From: Kofleriaceae bacterium
GTDB taxonomy: Bacteria; Myxococcota_A; Polyangia; Haliangiales; Haliangiaceae
NCBI GenBank assembly: GCA_024762925.1
Contig: JANTGM010000010.1
Location: 64,001 to 95,015, forward strand
Length of the DNA: 31,015 nucleotides
Direction: 5' to 3'
Shown here in pieces: positions 7,600 to 27,063 of the stretch. Position 1 is the stretch's first letter. Every line of letters begins with the position of its first letter. A program made the translations under genes and the position numbers. The notes below the pieces were generated by a model. That model saw nothing but the letters and a program-made list of their open reading frames with translations, had not been told where the DNA came from and did no database searches.

Positions 7600-7695
7600 T
7601 ACTCGTCGGCAATAAATCCACATCTGGATCGTCATTCTCGCCGACGCCTGTAGCGGATCCCCTCTGTAATTGCCTGAAAATACAGGGTATTGGGC

Positions 7696-7711
7696 TGGCG
7701 TGACGGTTGCA
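7696..7711 (+). promoter_or_regulatory. Candidate sigma-54 (-24/-12) promoter TGGCGTG-N4-TTGCA at the fliM start
   Basis: GG and GC are spaced exactly as in the consensus TGGCACG-N4-TTGCW. It lies 15 nt before the fliM ATG at 7726, so a transcript from it would be nearly leaderless. Confidence 0.3.
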
Positions 7712-7725
7712 GTCTCATTGCTCCG

Positions 7726-8763
7726 ATGAGTGACGCACCTCTTGACCCAAACGAACTCGAAGCGATTCAGGACGCTGTTCGCGAGGCGCAAGGCAAAGTT
7801 GATCGACCGAGCGCACCGCCGCCAATGATGAACATGAGCGAGGATGTCCTACCTCTCGCACTCATCGCGGATGATCGCGTGGCCGAGAGCGCACGACCAG
7901 CAGCAATGCGACTCGCTGAGCGCTGGGCAGAGTTGGCGGGGGCTCGCCTGAAGCATGTGCTCAAAGGCGAGGTCGAGATCAAAGTTGTTAGCGCCGAAGT
8001 AGTAGATGGAGGCGCACTTCGTGAAGAGCTCGAGCAGATGTGGTCCTGCGCTCTAAGTCTCTCCGACCGACCGGGCACCGCGCTTGTCGCTGTTGGCGGT
8101 CCAATGATTTCTGGAGTCGCAGCGCGGCTCTTGGGCGCTGTTAGTGAAGAGGGAGAAGATGATGAGCGGCCACCAACGGGCGCGTCACTCAAAGTCTTCG
8201 AGCCGGTGGGTAGAGCCTTGGTCGATACCTTGGTGATTCGTTGGGAAGGCCAAGACCGCTGCCGCATCGAAATTGACGAGACGGACGCTGGAACCGAGAT
8301 TGAGAAGCGCGCCCTCTGTGAAGCCGACGTGGTTGTGGCAGTCACGATGTCCGTCGATGGTCCGGTGAAGGGGCGCATTCGGCTTCTCTCTACGCCCGCT
8401 GTCATGGTGCCTCCTCCACAGCCCATCGAAGCTGTGCCAGCCGCGCCAGGTGCCATTGAGTGTGCGCTTGGTCAAGTAAACGTGGAAGTTCGGGTGGAGC
8501 TGGGACGCGCTCAATTGAGCATGGCAGAGCTCAAGAGAGTAAAACCCGGAACAATTCTTACCCTTGGACAGTTTGTGGATGACCCACTTCCCGTCGAATG
8601 CTCAGGGGTTGTAAAGGCGTATGGACGTGCCGTGGTGACACGAGGCGTCCTTGCCGTAGAAGTTGTAGGGGCCGCGTTGCCGGGAGGTCAGTTGGCCAGC
8701 GGTGAAGGCGGCACCCTTGGAGTAGCAGTTTCAGCTGCAGAAAGGCAGGCAAAAGTCGCATGA
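7726..8763 (+). CDS. fliM: Flagellar motor switch protein FliM
   Basis: N-terminal 'MSDAPLDPNELEAIQDAV' resembles the CheY-P-binding LSQxEIDALL peptide. C-terminal SpoA/FliN-like domain 'VEVRVELGRAQLSMAELKRVKPGTILTLGQ'. An in-frame TTG at 7690 is an alternative start. Confidence 0.88.
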   Translation: MSDAPLDPNELEAIQDAVREAQGKVDRPSAPPPMMNMSEDVLPLALIADDRVAESARPAAMRLAERWAELAGARLKHVLKGEVEIKVVSAEVVDGGALREELEQMWSCALSLSDRPGTALVAVGGPMISGVAARLLGAVSEEGEDDERPPTGASLKVFEPVGRALVDTLVIRWEGQDRCRIEIDETDAGTEIEKRALCEADVVVAVTMSVDGPVKGRIRLLSTPAVMVPPPQPIEAVPAAPGAIECALGQVNVEVRVELGRAQLSMAELKRVKPGTILTLGQFVDDPLPVECSGVVKAYGRAVVTRGVLAVEVVGAALPGGQLASGEGGTLGVAVSAAERQAKVA

Positions 8764-9074
8764 GTGAAAACAATTTCCCAATAGATGGCGCTTCGGAGTA
8801 TCCGAGTCAAGAAGGTGCCCTAATCGAAGAACTTCTACACGACGTGCCGCTTGAAGTCAGCGTCGAACTCGGCAGAGTTTCTCTGAATCTCCGTGAAATT
8901 GCGGCGCGCTTGGGACCTGGCTCCATCATCCCTCTCAACAAGATGACCGGAGACAAACTTGATGTCCGGGTCAACAACAGGCTCGTTGCTCGGGCCGAAG
9001 CGGTCGCCGTGGGCGAGCGTTGTGGTGTTCGAATTATTGAAATTGTTGAAAGTGGAGAGGCCGATCAATCATGA
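8760..9074 (+). CDS. fliN: Flagellar motor switch protein FliN
   Basis: 104 aa. SpoA domain 'LEVSVELGRVSLNLREIAARLGPGSIIPLNKMTGDKLDVRVNNRLVARAEAVAV'. ATGA overlap with fliM. Confidence 0.92.
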   Translation: MSENNFPIDGASEYPSQEGALIEELLHDVPLEVSVELGRVSLNLREIAARLGPGSIIPLNKMTGDKLDVRVNNRLVARAEAVAVGERCGVRIIEIVESGEADQS

Positions 9075-10369
9075 AGAACGTAGGGATACTTCGGGCCGCG
9101 ATCGCCGTGAGCGCGCTGCTCGTGAGCTTCTTTGTAGCATCAAGCGAAGTAAGTGCCGAAATCCGCTCTTCGTCGGTTCACGTTGAGCAGGAAGAGGATG
9201 GCGTTGTTATCCGTATCGATAACATGCAGGTTGATCACAACACGCTTCAGACGCGTGGTGATCGAATCTACATCGAGCTCCCAACGGCGGCAGCTGCACA
9301 GCAAATTCGATTGCAGGGCGACAAGACAGTGAAGATGGTCGAAATTCGAGACGGCCGACGTCCTCGGATTAGTGTGAAAATGCGCCACGGCCGCGAGAAG
9401 ACGCGTGTCCTTGGCGGAGCTGCCACGATCGAAAATCTCGACGGTGGCATCATCATGCACATCCCGCGCTGGCCACTACCCAAAGAGGCGACTGCTCCGG
9501 CAGCCGCGATTGTGGCTCCCACGCCTCCAGTAGCGGAAGCTATCGAGCCGCCCGTCAAGTCTGCGACACCAGCACCTACCCCAACTCCAGAGGCCTCTCC
9601 TGTAGCGGAGACAAGCAAGCCCGCATCGAAGGCCCCAGCGCCTGCCGCAGCATCTATCGGAACTCCGAATTCTTCTGAAGGCGGGATGTCGTTTGGTCTG
9701 CTTCTTGGTGTTGTCTTGCTGATGGCTGGCGGCGGGATCATTATTTGGCGGTCACGTCAGACACCAAAGGATGTGGTTGACCTTGAGTCATTCCGTGTGA
9801 TCGCAACGAAGCAACTTGGAGGCAAATCGAAGGTCGTATGGTTGAGCGTTGGTACTCGCGAAATGGTTGTCTCTGTGGGTGAAACAGGAACCTCGCTTCT
9901 CAGTGAGTGGTCGCGCAACCAGCAGCCAGCTCTCGCAGGCAACGCAGCAGCTGGGCTCCTTGGTGCCCCAGTGGCTGAGCCAAAGGTTGCTCCAACGCTT
10001 GTCGATATGCAGGACAGCATCGCAGTTGGCACTCCGGCACCTCCTGCCTCGATGGGACCCGCTGATCCGAATGCTTCAACGGTGTACGATTTTCGCAGCA
10101 CTTTGAGCACGGCGGCGAAGGCCCAGGCAGATATCGCATCGCATCTAAAGCAACGCGCTGTTCCACCAAAGCGGCGGCCAAAGGCGGCAAAACGTCGTGC
10201 AACCGCAGATGGCGAGAACAGCCCATCAGTGGCGGGCCTACTCAAGCTCCGAGATCAAGCTCCTCAGGTGAGCGTCGAAGTTGCAACCGATGATGCCGAG
10301 GCTGACGCTGAGTGGGCTCGAGAGCTTTTCAAGGCCACTCGTGAGAACGTCCTTCGGAGAATGGATTGA
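9071..10369 (+). CDS. fliO: FliO-like export-gate protein with large N- and C-terminal extensions (432 aa)
   Basis: Located between fliN and fliP. An internal TM helix (MSFGLLLGVVLLMAGGGIIIW) is followed by a FliO-like core ('FRVIATKQLGGKSKVVWLSVGTREMVVSVGETGTSLL'). Preceded by a signal peptide (MKNVGILRAAIAVSALLVSFFVASSEVSA), a ~105-aa beta-rich periplasmic domain and a Pro/Ala/Thr-rich linker. Followed by a ~130-aa basic/acidic tail. Confidence 0.6.
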   Translation: MKNVGILRAAIAVSALLVSFFVASSEVSAEIRSSSVHVEQEEDGVVIRIDNMQVDHNTLQTRGDRIYIELPTAAAAQQIRLQGDKTVKMVEIRDGRRPRISVKMRHGREKTRVLGGAATIENLDGGIIMHIPRWPLPKEATAPAAAIVAPTPPVAEAIEPPVKSATPAPTPTPEASPVAETSKPASKAPAPAAASIGTPNSSEGGMSFGLLLGVVLLMAGGGIIIWRSRQTPKDVVDLESFRVIATKQLGGKSKVVWLSVGTREMVVSVGETGTSLLSEWSRNQQPALAGNAAAGLLGAPVAEPKVAPTLVDMQDSIAVGTPAPPASMGPADPNASTVYDFRSTLSTAAKAQADIASHLKQRAVPPKRRPKAAKRRATADGENSPSVAGLLKLRDQAPQVSVEVATDDAEADAEWARELFKATRENVLRRMD

Positions 10370-22106: not shown

Positions 22107-22117
22107 GAGTGTTGACG

Positions 22118-22921
22118 ATGACCGTAGGCCTTGACTCAATGCAACCAAATCTCACCGCGCGAGCGAGCAGTGAGCCCGATGCCAAAGACGCCGGTAAGCA
22201 GCTCGAGGCGTTTTTCGTGCGCCGAATGCTCTCCGAGATGCGCAAGACTGTCGGAGAGGGCATGCTTAGCGGCGGCTACGCGGGCAAGATGTTCCAAGAT
22301 ATGCTCGATGAGGCGATGGCGGCCGACGTTTCAAGGAGTGGAGGTCTCGGTATCGCCGAGATGATGAGCGCAGAACTGGATCCAACAGCAGCTGACGCCA
22401 CAAAAGCCCCTCCCTCCGCAGAGAGCACCCGAGCGCTTGGAGCAGTTCGAGGGCATGCTCGTGCATACCAATCTGGTGGAAGCAACTTGCGCCATGCCCC
22501 CGTCGCGGCTCGAGTGAGTTCCGAGTTTGGGAAGCGTATCCACCCTGTGACCGGAGCTAAGAGTTTTCATGAAGGTATTGACCTGGCGGCCGCAAAGGGC
22601 ACCAAGGTTGCTGTCTCGGGACCAGGGGTCGTTGTACGTGCCGGCAAAGCCGGGAGTTATGGCAACATTGTGGTAGTGGATCACGGTGGTGGGCTCGAGA
22701 CTCGCTACGCTCACCTTGACTCGATGTCGGTAAAGGTCGGGCAACAGGTTGCCGCAGGGGAAATCGTCGGCAGGGTTGGGCAAACCGGTCGAGTGACTGG
22801 GCCGCACCTGCATTTTGAAGTTCGACGCGCTGGCAAAGCCATTGATCCCAAAGGGGAAATCCATGGCCTAGAAAAACATCAGAATAATCCTAAAGACGTC
22901 GGGGCAATGGCCGATCGATAG
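22118..22921 (+). CDS. flgJ: FlgJ-like rod assembly protein: N-terminal rod-binding domain fused to a C-terminal M23 (LytM) peptidase domain
   Basis: N-terminal 'AGKQLEAFFVRRMLSEMRKT' is a rod-binding (FlgJ N-terminal) motif. C-terminal 'HEGIDLAA...GSYGNIVVVDHGGGLETRYAHL...GQTGRVTGPHLHFEV' is the M23 zinc-peptidase HxxxD/HxH signature. SD aggag 9 nt before ATG 22118; GTG 22109 is an alternative start. Confidence 0.8.
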   Translation: MTVGLDSMQPNLTARASSEPDAKDAGKQLEAFFVRRMLSEMRKTVGEGMLSGGYAGKMFQDMLDEAMAADVSRSGGLGIAEMMSAELDPTAADATKAPPSAESTRALGAVRGHARAYQSGGSNLRHAPVAARVSSEFGKRIHPVTGAKSFHEGIDLAAAKGTKVAVSGPGVVVRAGKAGSYGNIVVVDHGGGLETRYAHLDSMSVKVGQQVAAGEIVGRVGQTGRVTGPHLHFEVRRAGKAIDPKGEIHGLEKHQNNPKDVGAMADR

Positions 22922-25094: not shown

Positions 25095-25970
25095 ATGCGC
25101 ATTACCGAACGTAGAATGCTATTGCAGGCGAGCAGGCAGGTCGCCAAGTCGCGTGAGCGCGTCGCAAGCGCTGCCGGCCCGGTATCCTCGGGCATTGAAG
25201 TCGACCGCCCCTCGGATGACCCGGCGCGTTGGGCTGCTGGGCGAAGAGCGCGTGTTCGATTGCAAGTCGGCGACCTTCGAGAAAAGGCAATCACCGCTTC
25301 AAACGCGAGGCTGTCCGAGTCGGATCGCGTCTTTTCTACGGTTGGCAGTGTCGCAAGCCGTGCCCGCGAGCTCGCGATTCTGGCTGCCAATGATGGTGCC
25401 CAGAATGCGGAGAGTCGCGTTGCTACCGCTGGAGAGGTCACGGCGCTTCTTGGAGAAGCGTTAGTGGCCGCCAATAGTCGCGGCTTGGACGGAGAATTTC
25501 TCTTATCGGGAACTCGTGGTGACAATCCACCGTTTGATGCCAATGGCGTGTATCAGGGCGATGCCAACGCGCGAACGATCGAGGCTGCCGAAGGCAACCG
25601 TCTGGTCGTCACGGTTACTGGCACGCTCTTCACTGCTGCTGAAGGCGTAGACATCTTTGACGAGATCGTGAAGTTCCGAGATGCCTTGCTGGCCGATGAC
25701 CTTACGGGCATTCAGAACGCGATTGGCGCACTGGAGCAGGGCGTCCATCAGGTTTCACTAGGGCGCGCGCAAATTGGTGGGCTTCAGAGTTCTTTGGATG
25801 CTGCGGAGATTGCGCGGGCAGACTTTGAAATGGTGCTCTCAGAAGTTCACCAACGCGCTGTGGAGATTGATCCCATCGAGGCCGCCTCCGAACTCGCTCT
25901 CAGCACACAGGCGCTTGAGGCAGCTCAGGCACTTACAGAGCGCATTGCTCAGGTTGTGCAAGCAGTTTAG
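25095..25970 (+). CDS. flgL: Hook-associated protein 3 FlgL
   Basis: Flagellin-like N-terminus 'MRITERRMLLQ...SSGIEVDRPSDDPARWA'. 291 aa. Position after flgK. Confidence 0.82.
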   Translation: MRITERRMLLQASRQVAKSRERVASAAGPVSSGIEVDRPSDDPARWAAGRRARVRLQVGDLREKAITASNARLSESDRVFSTVGSVASRARELAILAANDGAQNAESRVATAGEVTALLGEALVAANSRGLDGEFLLSGTRGDNPPFDANGVYQGDANARTIEAAEGNRLVVTVTGTLFTAAEGVDIFDEIVKFRDALLADDLTGIQNAIGALEQGVHQVSLGRAQIGGLQSSLDAAEIARADFEMVLSEVHQRAVEIDPIEAASELALSTQALEAAQALTERIAQVVQAV

Positions 25971-26000
25971 CCCACTTATGAATTTCTCAAAAAAAGAGCC

Positions 26001-26036
26001 TAAAGCCCTTCATGAAGACCGATGTCGGGCGAACCA
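26001..26036 (+). promoter_or_regulatory. Candidate sigma-28 promoter for fliC1 (TAAAG-N14-CCGATGTC), with a conserved GGGCGAACCA box
   Basis: The TAAA at 26001 and CCGAT at 26019 approximate TAAA-N15-GCCGATAA. The downstream 10-mer GGGCGAACCA also occurs upstream of fliC2. Confidence 0.35.
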
Positions 26037-26080
26037 GGTAAGCGACACACACCTGCAACGCTACTTTGGAGAAATAAAAC

Positions 26081-26926
26081 ATGGGCATCTCAATCGTCAC
26101 AAACCTTCCGTCACTTCTCGCTCAACGCAACTTGGGCGCAACCCAGCGCGACCTTCAGAACAGCATCGGAAAGCTGTCCTCTGGTCTTCGCATCAACCGT
26201 GCAGCCGACGACGCCGCCGGTCTGGGCATCTCAGAAAATCTCAAAGCCGATATTCGCTCCATGGTTCAAGCCAAGCGAAATGCAAACGACGCAATCTCTC
26301 TGACGCAAGTCGCAGAGGGCGCCATGAACGAAATGCAAGGCATCACCGCTCGTATGCGCGAACTTGGAATGCAATCGGCAAACGGAACCCTTGGCACTAC
26401 CGAGCGCTCCTACATTCAGACCGAATTCAACCAGCTTCGCAACGAAATCAATCGCATCTCGGCCACGACAGAGTTCAACGGCCAAATGCTCTTGGACGGC
26501 TCCGCTTCGGCAGGACTGACCATGCAGGTTGGTATTCACAACACCGGCAACGACAGACTCTCAATGAGCGTCACACGTCTCACCACATCGACAATCGGCT
26601 CGACTTCGATGCACCTGGCAAGTGCCAGCCTCTCAACGGCTACCAACGCACAAATCGCGCTGGATCTCTTCGACAAGGCAATCGAGCAGCTCTCGACCTC
26701 TCGTTCGAATCTTGGTGCACTCCAGAATCGCATCATGATTACCATCAACAACTTGGATGTTGCTCACGAGAATCTCTCAGCAGCCAACTCTCGAATCCGA
26801 GACGTAGACGTCGCCGAAGAATCCGGCCGACTCACCAAGAACCAAATCCTCTCTCAGGCTGGCGTAGCCATCTTGGGACAAGCGAATCAGCTTCCATCGG
26901 CAGCGCTCTCGCTTATCGGAGGATAA
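26081..26926 (+). CDS. fliC: Flagellin (short, ~281 aa, D0/D1-only type)
   Basis: N-terminal 'LAQRNLGATQRDLQNSIGKLSSGLRINRAADDAAGLGISE' and C-terminal 'ENLSAANSRIRDVDVAEESGRLTKNQILSQAGVAILGQANQLPSAALSLI' are flagellin signatures. Confidence 0.93.
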   Translation: MGISIVTNLPSLLAQRNLGATQRDLQNSIGKLSSGLRINRAADDAAGLGISENLKADIRSMVQAKRNANDAISLTQVAEGAMNEMQGITARMRELGMQSANGTLGTTERSYIQTEFNQLRNEINRISATTEFNGQMLLDGSASAGLTMQVGIHNTGNDRLSMSVTRLTTSTIGSTSMHLASASLSTATNAQIALDLFDKAIEQLSTSRSNLGALQNRIMITINNLDVAHENLSAANSRIRDVDVAEESGRLTKNQILSQAGVAILGQANQLPSAALSLIGG

Positions 26927-26946
26927 TAACGGCAACAAAGGCTCGG

Positions 26947-26985
26947 GCCTCGGCGGCACACAGCATGCCGAGGCTCTTGTTTTTG
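26947..26985 (+). terminator. Rho-independent terminator after fliC1 (GCCTCGGC-12 nt-GCCGAGGC + TCTTGTTTTTG)
   Basis: 8-bp perfect stem followed by a U-tract, read directly. Confidence 0.75.
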
Positions 26986-27036
26986 CAAGCCAATCTCACG
27001 GTTTTGAAAAATCGTAAAAAAAGCGCTCTCGGCCCT

Positions 27037-27063
27037 TAAAAGAAATTGGCCTTGGGCGAACCA
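27037..27063 (+). promoter_or_regulatory. Candidate promoter region for fliC2 (TAAAA ... GGGCGAACCA)
   Basis: TAAA at 27037 with a GCGAAC-type -10 about 16 nt downstream. Same GGGCGAACCA 10-mer as upstream of fliC1. A weaker sigma-28 match. Confidence 0.25.

Follow-up and report, generated by a model that had tools for sequence, protein, structure and literature searches.

The first step in assembling the flagellar export gate involves FliO. A survey covering over 30,000 genomes (Andrianova, Dobbins, Erhardt, Hendrixson & Zhulin, PNAS 2025, PMC12403147) found it to be a near-universal core component that has received lineage-specific additions. FliO proteins with a periplasmic AMIN domain were described from Myxococcota, Campylobacterota and further phyla, the domains being assigned with Pfam models and inspection of AlphaFold structures (PMC12403147). 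C. jejuni is the tested example of this class: there, FliO deprived of its AMIN domain left FlhB levels unrestored, brought amphitrichous flagellation back only in part and failed to rescue the colonisation of chicks (PMC12403147). Here, we studied 31,015 nucleotides from a Kofleriaceae bacterium (assembly GCA_024762925.1, contig JANTGM010000010.1, positions 64,001 to 95,015 of the forward strand; hereafter, the window). The product of the open reading frame (ORF) at positions 9071-10369 of this window is a true FliO orthologue of unusual length, from a flagellated lineage of Myxococcota (Kofleriaceae/Haliangiales).

The initial annotation regarded the domain architecture of this protein as unusual. 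The great length and the extra N-terminal domain are borne out, and the novelty is not, since the class had been published (PMC12403147). The window protein is a further member of it, and the idea of a periplasmic AMIN domain on FliO is not new. As in the published class, the gene adjoins fliP in a flagellar operon, and a predicted extracytoplasmic domain of AMIN-type fold precedes the transmembrane (TM) helix and the beta-sheet. The class was reported in Myxococcota, and the loci related to ours come from metagenome-assembled genomes (MAGs) of Kofleriaceae/Haliangiales. The window protein differs from the published AMIN-FliO in that its N-terminal domain goes undetected by the Pfam AMIN model, and in that it adds a 51-aa (amino acid) insertion after the core and a C-terminal extension of about 70 aa with two conserved motifs. 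The LysM-FliO of some Myxococcota follow the same logic, i.e. a wall-binding module on the periplasmic side of FliO, with a different module (PMC12403147).

We consider it likely that the window protein is a bitopic FliO whose core serves as export-gate chaperone and whose periplasmic domain, of predicted AMIN fold, binds peptidoglycan. A wall-binding domain on FliO is a plausible way to set where and how stably the flagellum is built, an idea already published and partly tested in C. jejuni. The locus adds to it a whole clade of uncultured flagellated Myxococcota with an AMIN-fold FliO missed by standard Pfam annotation, as well as conserved cytoplasmic motifs. The overall gain is modest.

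A long FliO encoded by one reading frame

The ORF of 432 aa announced between fliN and fliP is indeed found at 9071-10369, flanked by Pfam matches to FliN and FliP. It lies directly upstream of fliP in the flagellar export operon, the position of fliO, and its product shows the FliO arrangement of one TM helix and, after it, a small antiparallel beta-sheet in the cytoplasm (hydropathy and AlphaFold model). The initial annotation had placed the FliO unit in mid-protein, with the helix at about residues 203-225 and a conserved stretch after it. This placement holds: the helix spans residues 206-228 and Pfam FliO (PF04347) matches residues 239-287, with 24.5 bits when the whole protein is scanned and 27.2 bits when only residues 201-300 are, for a cut-off of 22. 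The NCBIfam FliO equivalog TIGR03500 is not reached by the 432-aa protein (15.4 vs 55.25 bits). Equivalog-type models commonly miss divergent FliO proteins (PMC12403147). From N- to C-terminus, the ORF and the parts of its product that precede the tail are:

9071..10369, + strand: fliO ORF, ATG to TGA, 432 aa plus stop; Pfam FliO above cut-off
9071..9157, + strand: putative Sec-type signal peptide, residues 1-29; K2, R8, hydrophobic core, V-S-A/E (slash, putative cleavage site)
9158..9475, + strand: predicted periplasmic AMIN-like beta-sandwich, residues 30-135; nine strands and a helix (108-117) in the AlphaFold model
9476..9685, + strand: Pro/Ala/Thr-rich periplasmic linker, residues 136-205; predicted disordered, predicted local distance difference test (pLDDT) 49-61
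9686..9754, + strand: single TM helix, residues 206-228, then RSRQTPK on the cytoplasmic side; AlphaFold helix 208-229
9785..9919, + strand: cytoplasmic FliO four-stranded beta-sheet, residues 239-283; Pfam PF04347; strands 241-281, pLDDT 90-94
9926..10078, + strand: variable Pro/Ala-rich insertion, residues 286-336, 51 aa; predicted disordered (composition, AlphaFold)

With the canonical short FliO of E. coli and Salmonella (121-125 aa; PF04347) the protein has in common the TM helix, the cytoplasmic beta-sheet, probably the C-terminal helix (DFQSVM in E. coli, DFRSTL here) and the gene position between fliN and fliP. It is 3.5 times longer, the extras being the signal peptide, the periplasmic domain, its tether, the internal insertion and the C-terminal extension. 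The E. coli FliO itself has no sequence relative in the PDB.

Signal peptide, cleavage and topology were read from hydropathy and flanking charge, not from a dedicated predictor. A Kyte-Doolittle scan (19-residue window) gives two hydrophobic segments only, at residues ~3-29 and ~204-228. The first lacks a twin arginine and a cysteine and ends in V-S-A/E, and the small-x-small site before the mature N-terminus is kept in most close homologues. Hence, the cleavable signal peptide of the initial annotation stands as far as its Sec-like features (K2, R8, V-S-A/E) and the conserved site are concerned, its cleavage being probable from sequence. RSRQTPK, after the second segment, fits the positive-inside rule, so that the C-terminal half should be cytoplasmic. 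A signal-peptide-like segment followed by a TM helix with such a flank would therefore place residues 30-205 in the periplasm. FliO proteins in general are reported to have the same topology (PMC12403147). The spacer described as rich in Pro, Ala and Thr is indeed so (residues 136-205: 26% Ala, 23% Pro, 10% Thr). Its length varies from 37 to 174 aa across the family, with a median of 82, and its sequence is barely conserved.

Long FliO proteins of this kind recur. The homologue search returned 15 proteins of 400-489 aa plus a 264-aa fragment, all with the same end-to-end layout and, where named by the source, annotated as FliO of Myxococcales or Kofleriaceae MAGs; the length noticed in the window is thus shared by its relatives. 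An exhaustive search with the N-terminal domain profile gave 54 cluster representatives (E<=1e-3), which with few exceptions have 300-490 aa and carry the domain at residues ~20-135. Pfam FliO matched 41 of 48 sequences (the query and 47 representatives) at E<=0.01. Family statistics given here and below come from a combined alignment of 55 sequences, close homologues and more distant cluster representatives together, in which all 55 members match FliO at E<=10. All 12 related loci, taken from genomes that represent their species (MAGs of Kofleriaceae, Haliangiales, Myxococcales and 'Deltaproteobacteria'), keep the order fliM-fliN-fliO-fliP-fliQ-fliR, and fliN and fliP enclose one ORF in each.

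The rate of change is much higher in FliO than in the adjacent FliN and FliP. Between the window and the nearest locus (L001, an uncultured Kofleriaceae MAG) identity is 94.5% for FliP, 95% for FliN and only 70% for FliO. The changes concentrate in the two Pro/Ala-rich linkers: relative to one homologue (P0010) these are 11% and 23% identical, vs 67% for the AMIN-like domain, 62% for the core and 81% for motif A of the tail. Averaged over the 55 sequences, the majority residue accounts for a fraction of 0.54 in the FliO core and 0.46 in the AMIN-like domain.

These data bear on whether the long ORF could be an artefact, either a secreted protein fused to a short FliO by a sequencing or assembly error, or a gene truly starting at Met206. 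An ATG with an upstream GAAGG does occur there, just ahead of the TM helix, and its product would be about as short as a canonical FliO (121 aa in E. coli). But the architecture is uninterrupted in 15 close homologues and about 40 distant representatives from independent assemblies, synteny leaves no separate gene, and the N-terminal domain retains 41-90% identity while the adjoining linker to the TM helix drifts. Met206 itself is Val or Ile in close homologues. The recurrent one-ORF layout, the domain-wise conservation and the unconserved Met206 thus lead us to reject both the fusion error, which the initial annotation had named as a possible refutation, and the internal start; we find either hardly credible.

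The N-terminal domain: AMIN-like in predicted fold, divergent in sequence

In the AlphaFold model a beta-sandwich spans residues 36-132. It is a small sandwich of strand pairs, as in the AMIN domains of AmiC (4bin) and of PilQ (B2, 4aqz), and the domain is assigned to an AMIN-like beta-sandwich on this predicted structure. The set of comparison includes the PilQ secretins of N. meningitidis (B2, 4aqz/4av2) and M. xanthus (3jc8) along with E. coli AmiC (4bin), to which the domain is 9-11% identical. Unlike these, it sits on an inner-membrane chaperone instead of a secretin or an amidase, and the protein uses a Sec-type signal, not a Tat one.

What defines AMIN is an Rxxx[D/E] signature, carried by the second of the two strands in every pair (de Souza et al. 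2008, PMC2572700). The window protein carries R65-I-Y-I-E69, which fits. At the level of the family alignment, which compares sequences only, the signature is not recognisable in strand pairs 1 and 4.

Several observations weigh against the assignment to AMIN, starting with its reliance on a model. No Foldseek match of the modelled domain reaches E <= 0.001, and the model has a helix at 108-117, whereas the original all-beta description of AMIN predicts none (PMC2572700). R65 is kept in 41 of the 55 family members, with an acidic residue at +4 in only 18 and at +2 in 31; R99 is kept in 46, yet its +4 position holds Gln or Lys. The initial annotation had likened residues 30-135 to AMIN, and the match of this region to Pfam AMIN (PF11741) stays below the gathering score (13 vs 20.5 bits, E 0.11, 33 residues covered). 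Across the family the same model finds a single member in 55 (E 0.28). Aligned by hhalign to a profile of 44 AmiC AMIN sequences, a narrow one built from close enterobacterial AmiC fragments, the family domain obtains a probability of 4%. Profiles of the domain from the close family (A2) and from the whole family restricted to the domain (A6) retrieved no AMIN chain from the PDB.

Other searches gave no link to AMIN either. The close-family profile had zero matches among PDB sequences, and hhalign of the family domain with the single AMIN sequence of E. coli AmiC was not significant. An exhaustive search with the hidden Markov model of the domain, over 1.84 billion representatives, returned only FliO-type proteins or fragments and no bridge to annotated AMIN proteins; its one large match, a Cna_B/DUF11 repeat protein (P0051), is spurious. 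Pfam and NCBIfam scans of the domain and the tail gave nothing but the sub-threshold AMIN and a sub-threshold SecD_1st (E 0.006, 16.4 bits vs 27), and Pfam scans found no LysM in the window FliO or its family. One candidate looked better at first sight: the full-length family profile matched N. meningitidis PilQ with E 6e-4, in what looked like the right register. The match was gone with the domain-only profile A6, i.e. once the Ala/Pro-rich linker was removed. For this reason, we put it down to the linker and discard it as evidence.

One might thus argue that the resemblance to AMIN is a convergence of fold, the domain being an unrelated small beta-sandwich family particular to these Myxococcota FliO. 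The uniformly negative sequence tests, the loss of the PilQ match without the linker and the lack of a Foldseek match at E <= 0.001 speak for this. The sandwich of strand pairs predicted by AlphaFold speaks for AMIN, and we find convergence very unlikely. Since the sequence tests are negative and the Rxxx[D/E] signature is partly kept, the domain is best called 'AMIN-like (fold level), divergent', rather than a demonstrated member of PF11741. Hence, of the AMIN-like domain of about 105 aa initially proposed, the predicted fold and the topology stand, and sequence homology finds no support in Pfam, hhalign and PDB profile searches.

In PilQ and AmiC, the AMIN domains attach to the wall at septum and poles. 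In M. xanthus, those of PilQ bind the peptidoglycan of septa and poles and bring about polar recruitment (PMC10653833). By analogy, the AMIN-like domain of the window FliO most likely binds peptidoglycan. Sec export and removal of the signal peptide would yield a mature bitopic protein, with the AMIN-fold sandwich in the periplasm on a flexible Pro/Ala/Thr tether of ~70 residues, one TM helix across the membrane and, in the cytoplasm, the canonical FliO beta-sheet, its C-terminal helix and the lineage-specific extension. The core is most likely a membrane chaperone or scaffold for the assembly or stability of the FliP/FliR/FlhB export gate, as elsewhere, and wall binding would hold FliO, and with it the gate under construction, at a given site of the envelope. 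Such a role in localisation or stabilisation is what we infer for the domain.

AMIN-like domains can also bind proteins instead, as in the PflA-PflB complex, which is a further point against wall binding. The domain might then be a protein-protein interaction module, with the FliF ring, the periplasmic face of FliP/FliR or parts of FlgA/P-ring as partners, or else a small periplasmic holdase. Given the precedents of PilQ and AmiC, we see this as unlikely and favour peptidoglycan binding.

The cytoplasmic tail

The charged tail noticed in the initial annotation is real: residues 337-432 have a net charge of +4 and include one basic cluster, PPKRRPKAAKRR, and one acidic, DDAEADAE. It has internal structure besides, since AlphaFold predicts three helices in it, at 341-362, 385-395 and 409-431 (pLDDT about 60-85). 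Its parts are:

10079..10156, + strand: helix 1 (TVYDFRSTLSTAAKAQ...), residues 337-362; probable counterpart of the C-terminal helix DFQSVMKNLLKR of E. coli FliO
10157..10219, + strand: basic, poorly conserved stretch, residues 363-383, which holds the cluster PPKRRPKAAKRR
10220..10252, + strand: motif A, SPSVAGLLKLR, residues 384-394; majority fraction 0.78; short helix 385-395
10295..10366, + strand: motif B helix (ADAEWARELFKATRENVLRRMD), residues 409-432, after the acidic run; helix 409-431, pLDDT about 75-85

When the core is joined directly to helix 1 (VYDFRSTLSTAAK), the Pfam FliO score rises from 26.5 to 30.8 bits (+4.3) and the alignment reaches profile position 90 of 91. Joined instead to motif A or motif B, it stops by position 77. 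The E. coli protein ends in DFQSVMKNLLKR, which corresponds to helix 1. The extended match and the corresponding end therefore indicate that the canonical FliO unit probably ends near residue 362 and is split by the 51-aa insertion, residues 363-432 being a lineage-specific extension.

Nowhere in the protein is conservation over the 55 homologues higher than in motifs A and B, which exceed the FliO core. The consensus forms are SPxVAGLLKLR and ADAEWAREL, and the family patterns S-P-x-[VI]-[AS]-G-[LI]-[LM]-[KR]-L-[RK] for A and [DE]-A-[DE]-W-A-R-E-L for B. In the latter, W415 is nearly invariant and the segment ADAEWARELFKATR (residues 410-424) has a mean majority-residue fraction of 0.59. No family model of Pfam or NCBIfam matches the extension (residues 363-432; window 10157-10366), a homologue search with a profile of the C-terminal motifs gave two short fragments only, and the available part of PMC12403147 holds no mention of the two motifs for Myxococcota. 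They are the only element of the locus that we did not trace to a prior description. One might speculate, tentatively and with some doubt, that the extension is a new docking module coupling a wall-anchored FliO to a cytoplasmic partner, making FliO a trans-envelope positioning adaptor and not only a transient chaperone, with the N-terminal domain a Pfam-silent branch of AMIN. Such a partner could be FlhB-C or FlhA-C, the ring of FliM/FliN, or FlhF/FlhG, the positioning system whose genes lie downstream.

The flagellar gene cluster

The window (1-31015) is filled by a nearly complete cluster of flagellar genes on its + strand, those of the L- and P-rings included (Pfam scan of its ORFs). The genes fliF, fliG, fliH, fliI, fliK, flgD, flgE, fliM and fliN precede fliO, and fliP, fliQ, fliR, flhB, flhA, flhF, flhG, fliA, flgF, flgG and flgA follow it, and then flgH, flgI, flgJ, flgK, flgL, a flagellin gene and fliD. 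The immediate neighbours are:

8760..9074, + strand: fliN, upstream of fliO and translationally coupled; FliN PF01052
10366..11133, + strand: fliP, downstream of fliO; export-gate subunit; FliP PF00813

The ATG of fliO shares bases with the stop codon of fliN (ATGA), and its stop with the TTG at which the ORF list has fliP begin. Overlapping start and stop codons are the usual layout of translationally coupled genes in operons. In Salmonella, FliP is the export-gate subunit chaperoned by FliO (PMC12403147).

The presence of flhF and flhG in the same cluster suggests polar flagella. Myxococcota, as a phylum, are known more for their gliding and type IV pili. The closest genome matches of the window are uncultured Kofleriaceae/Haliangiales (Myxococcota) MAGs. 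One Kofleriaceae MAG, SMAG_U4951, has two contigs (L008 and L010) that each carry fliM-fliN-AMIN-like fliO-fliP-fliQ-fliR, i.e. either two sets of flagellar export genes in one genome or a bin mixing two strains.

Some other genes of the cluster depart from the standard. The protein in the position of FliM (7690-8763; 357 aa in the longest ORF) has only a C-terminal FliMN_C/SpoA match at E<=0.001; the Pfam FliM middle domain is not among the matches at this threshold, which suggests a divergent FliM. The protein in the position of FlgJ (22109-22921) associates a Rod-binding domain (PF10135) with Peptidase_M23 (PF01551), not with a muramidase/glucosaminidase. Finally, an ORF of 421 aa without Pfam match lies between flgL and the flagellin gene (25774-27039); because it overlaps the end of flgL, its true start is probably later.
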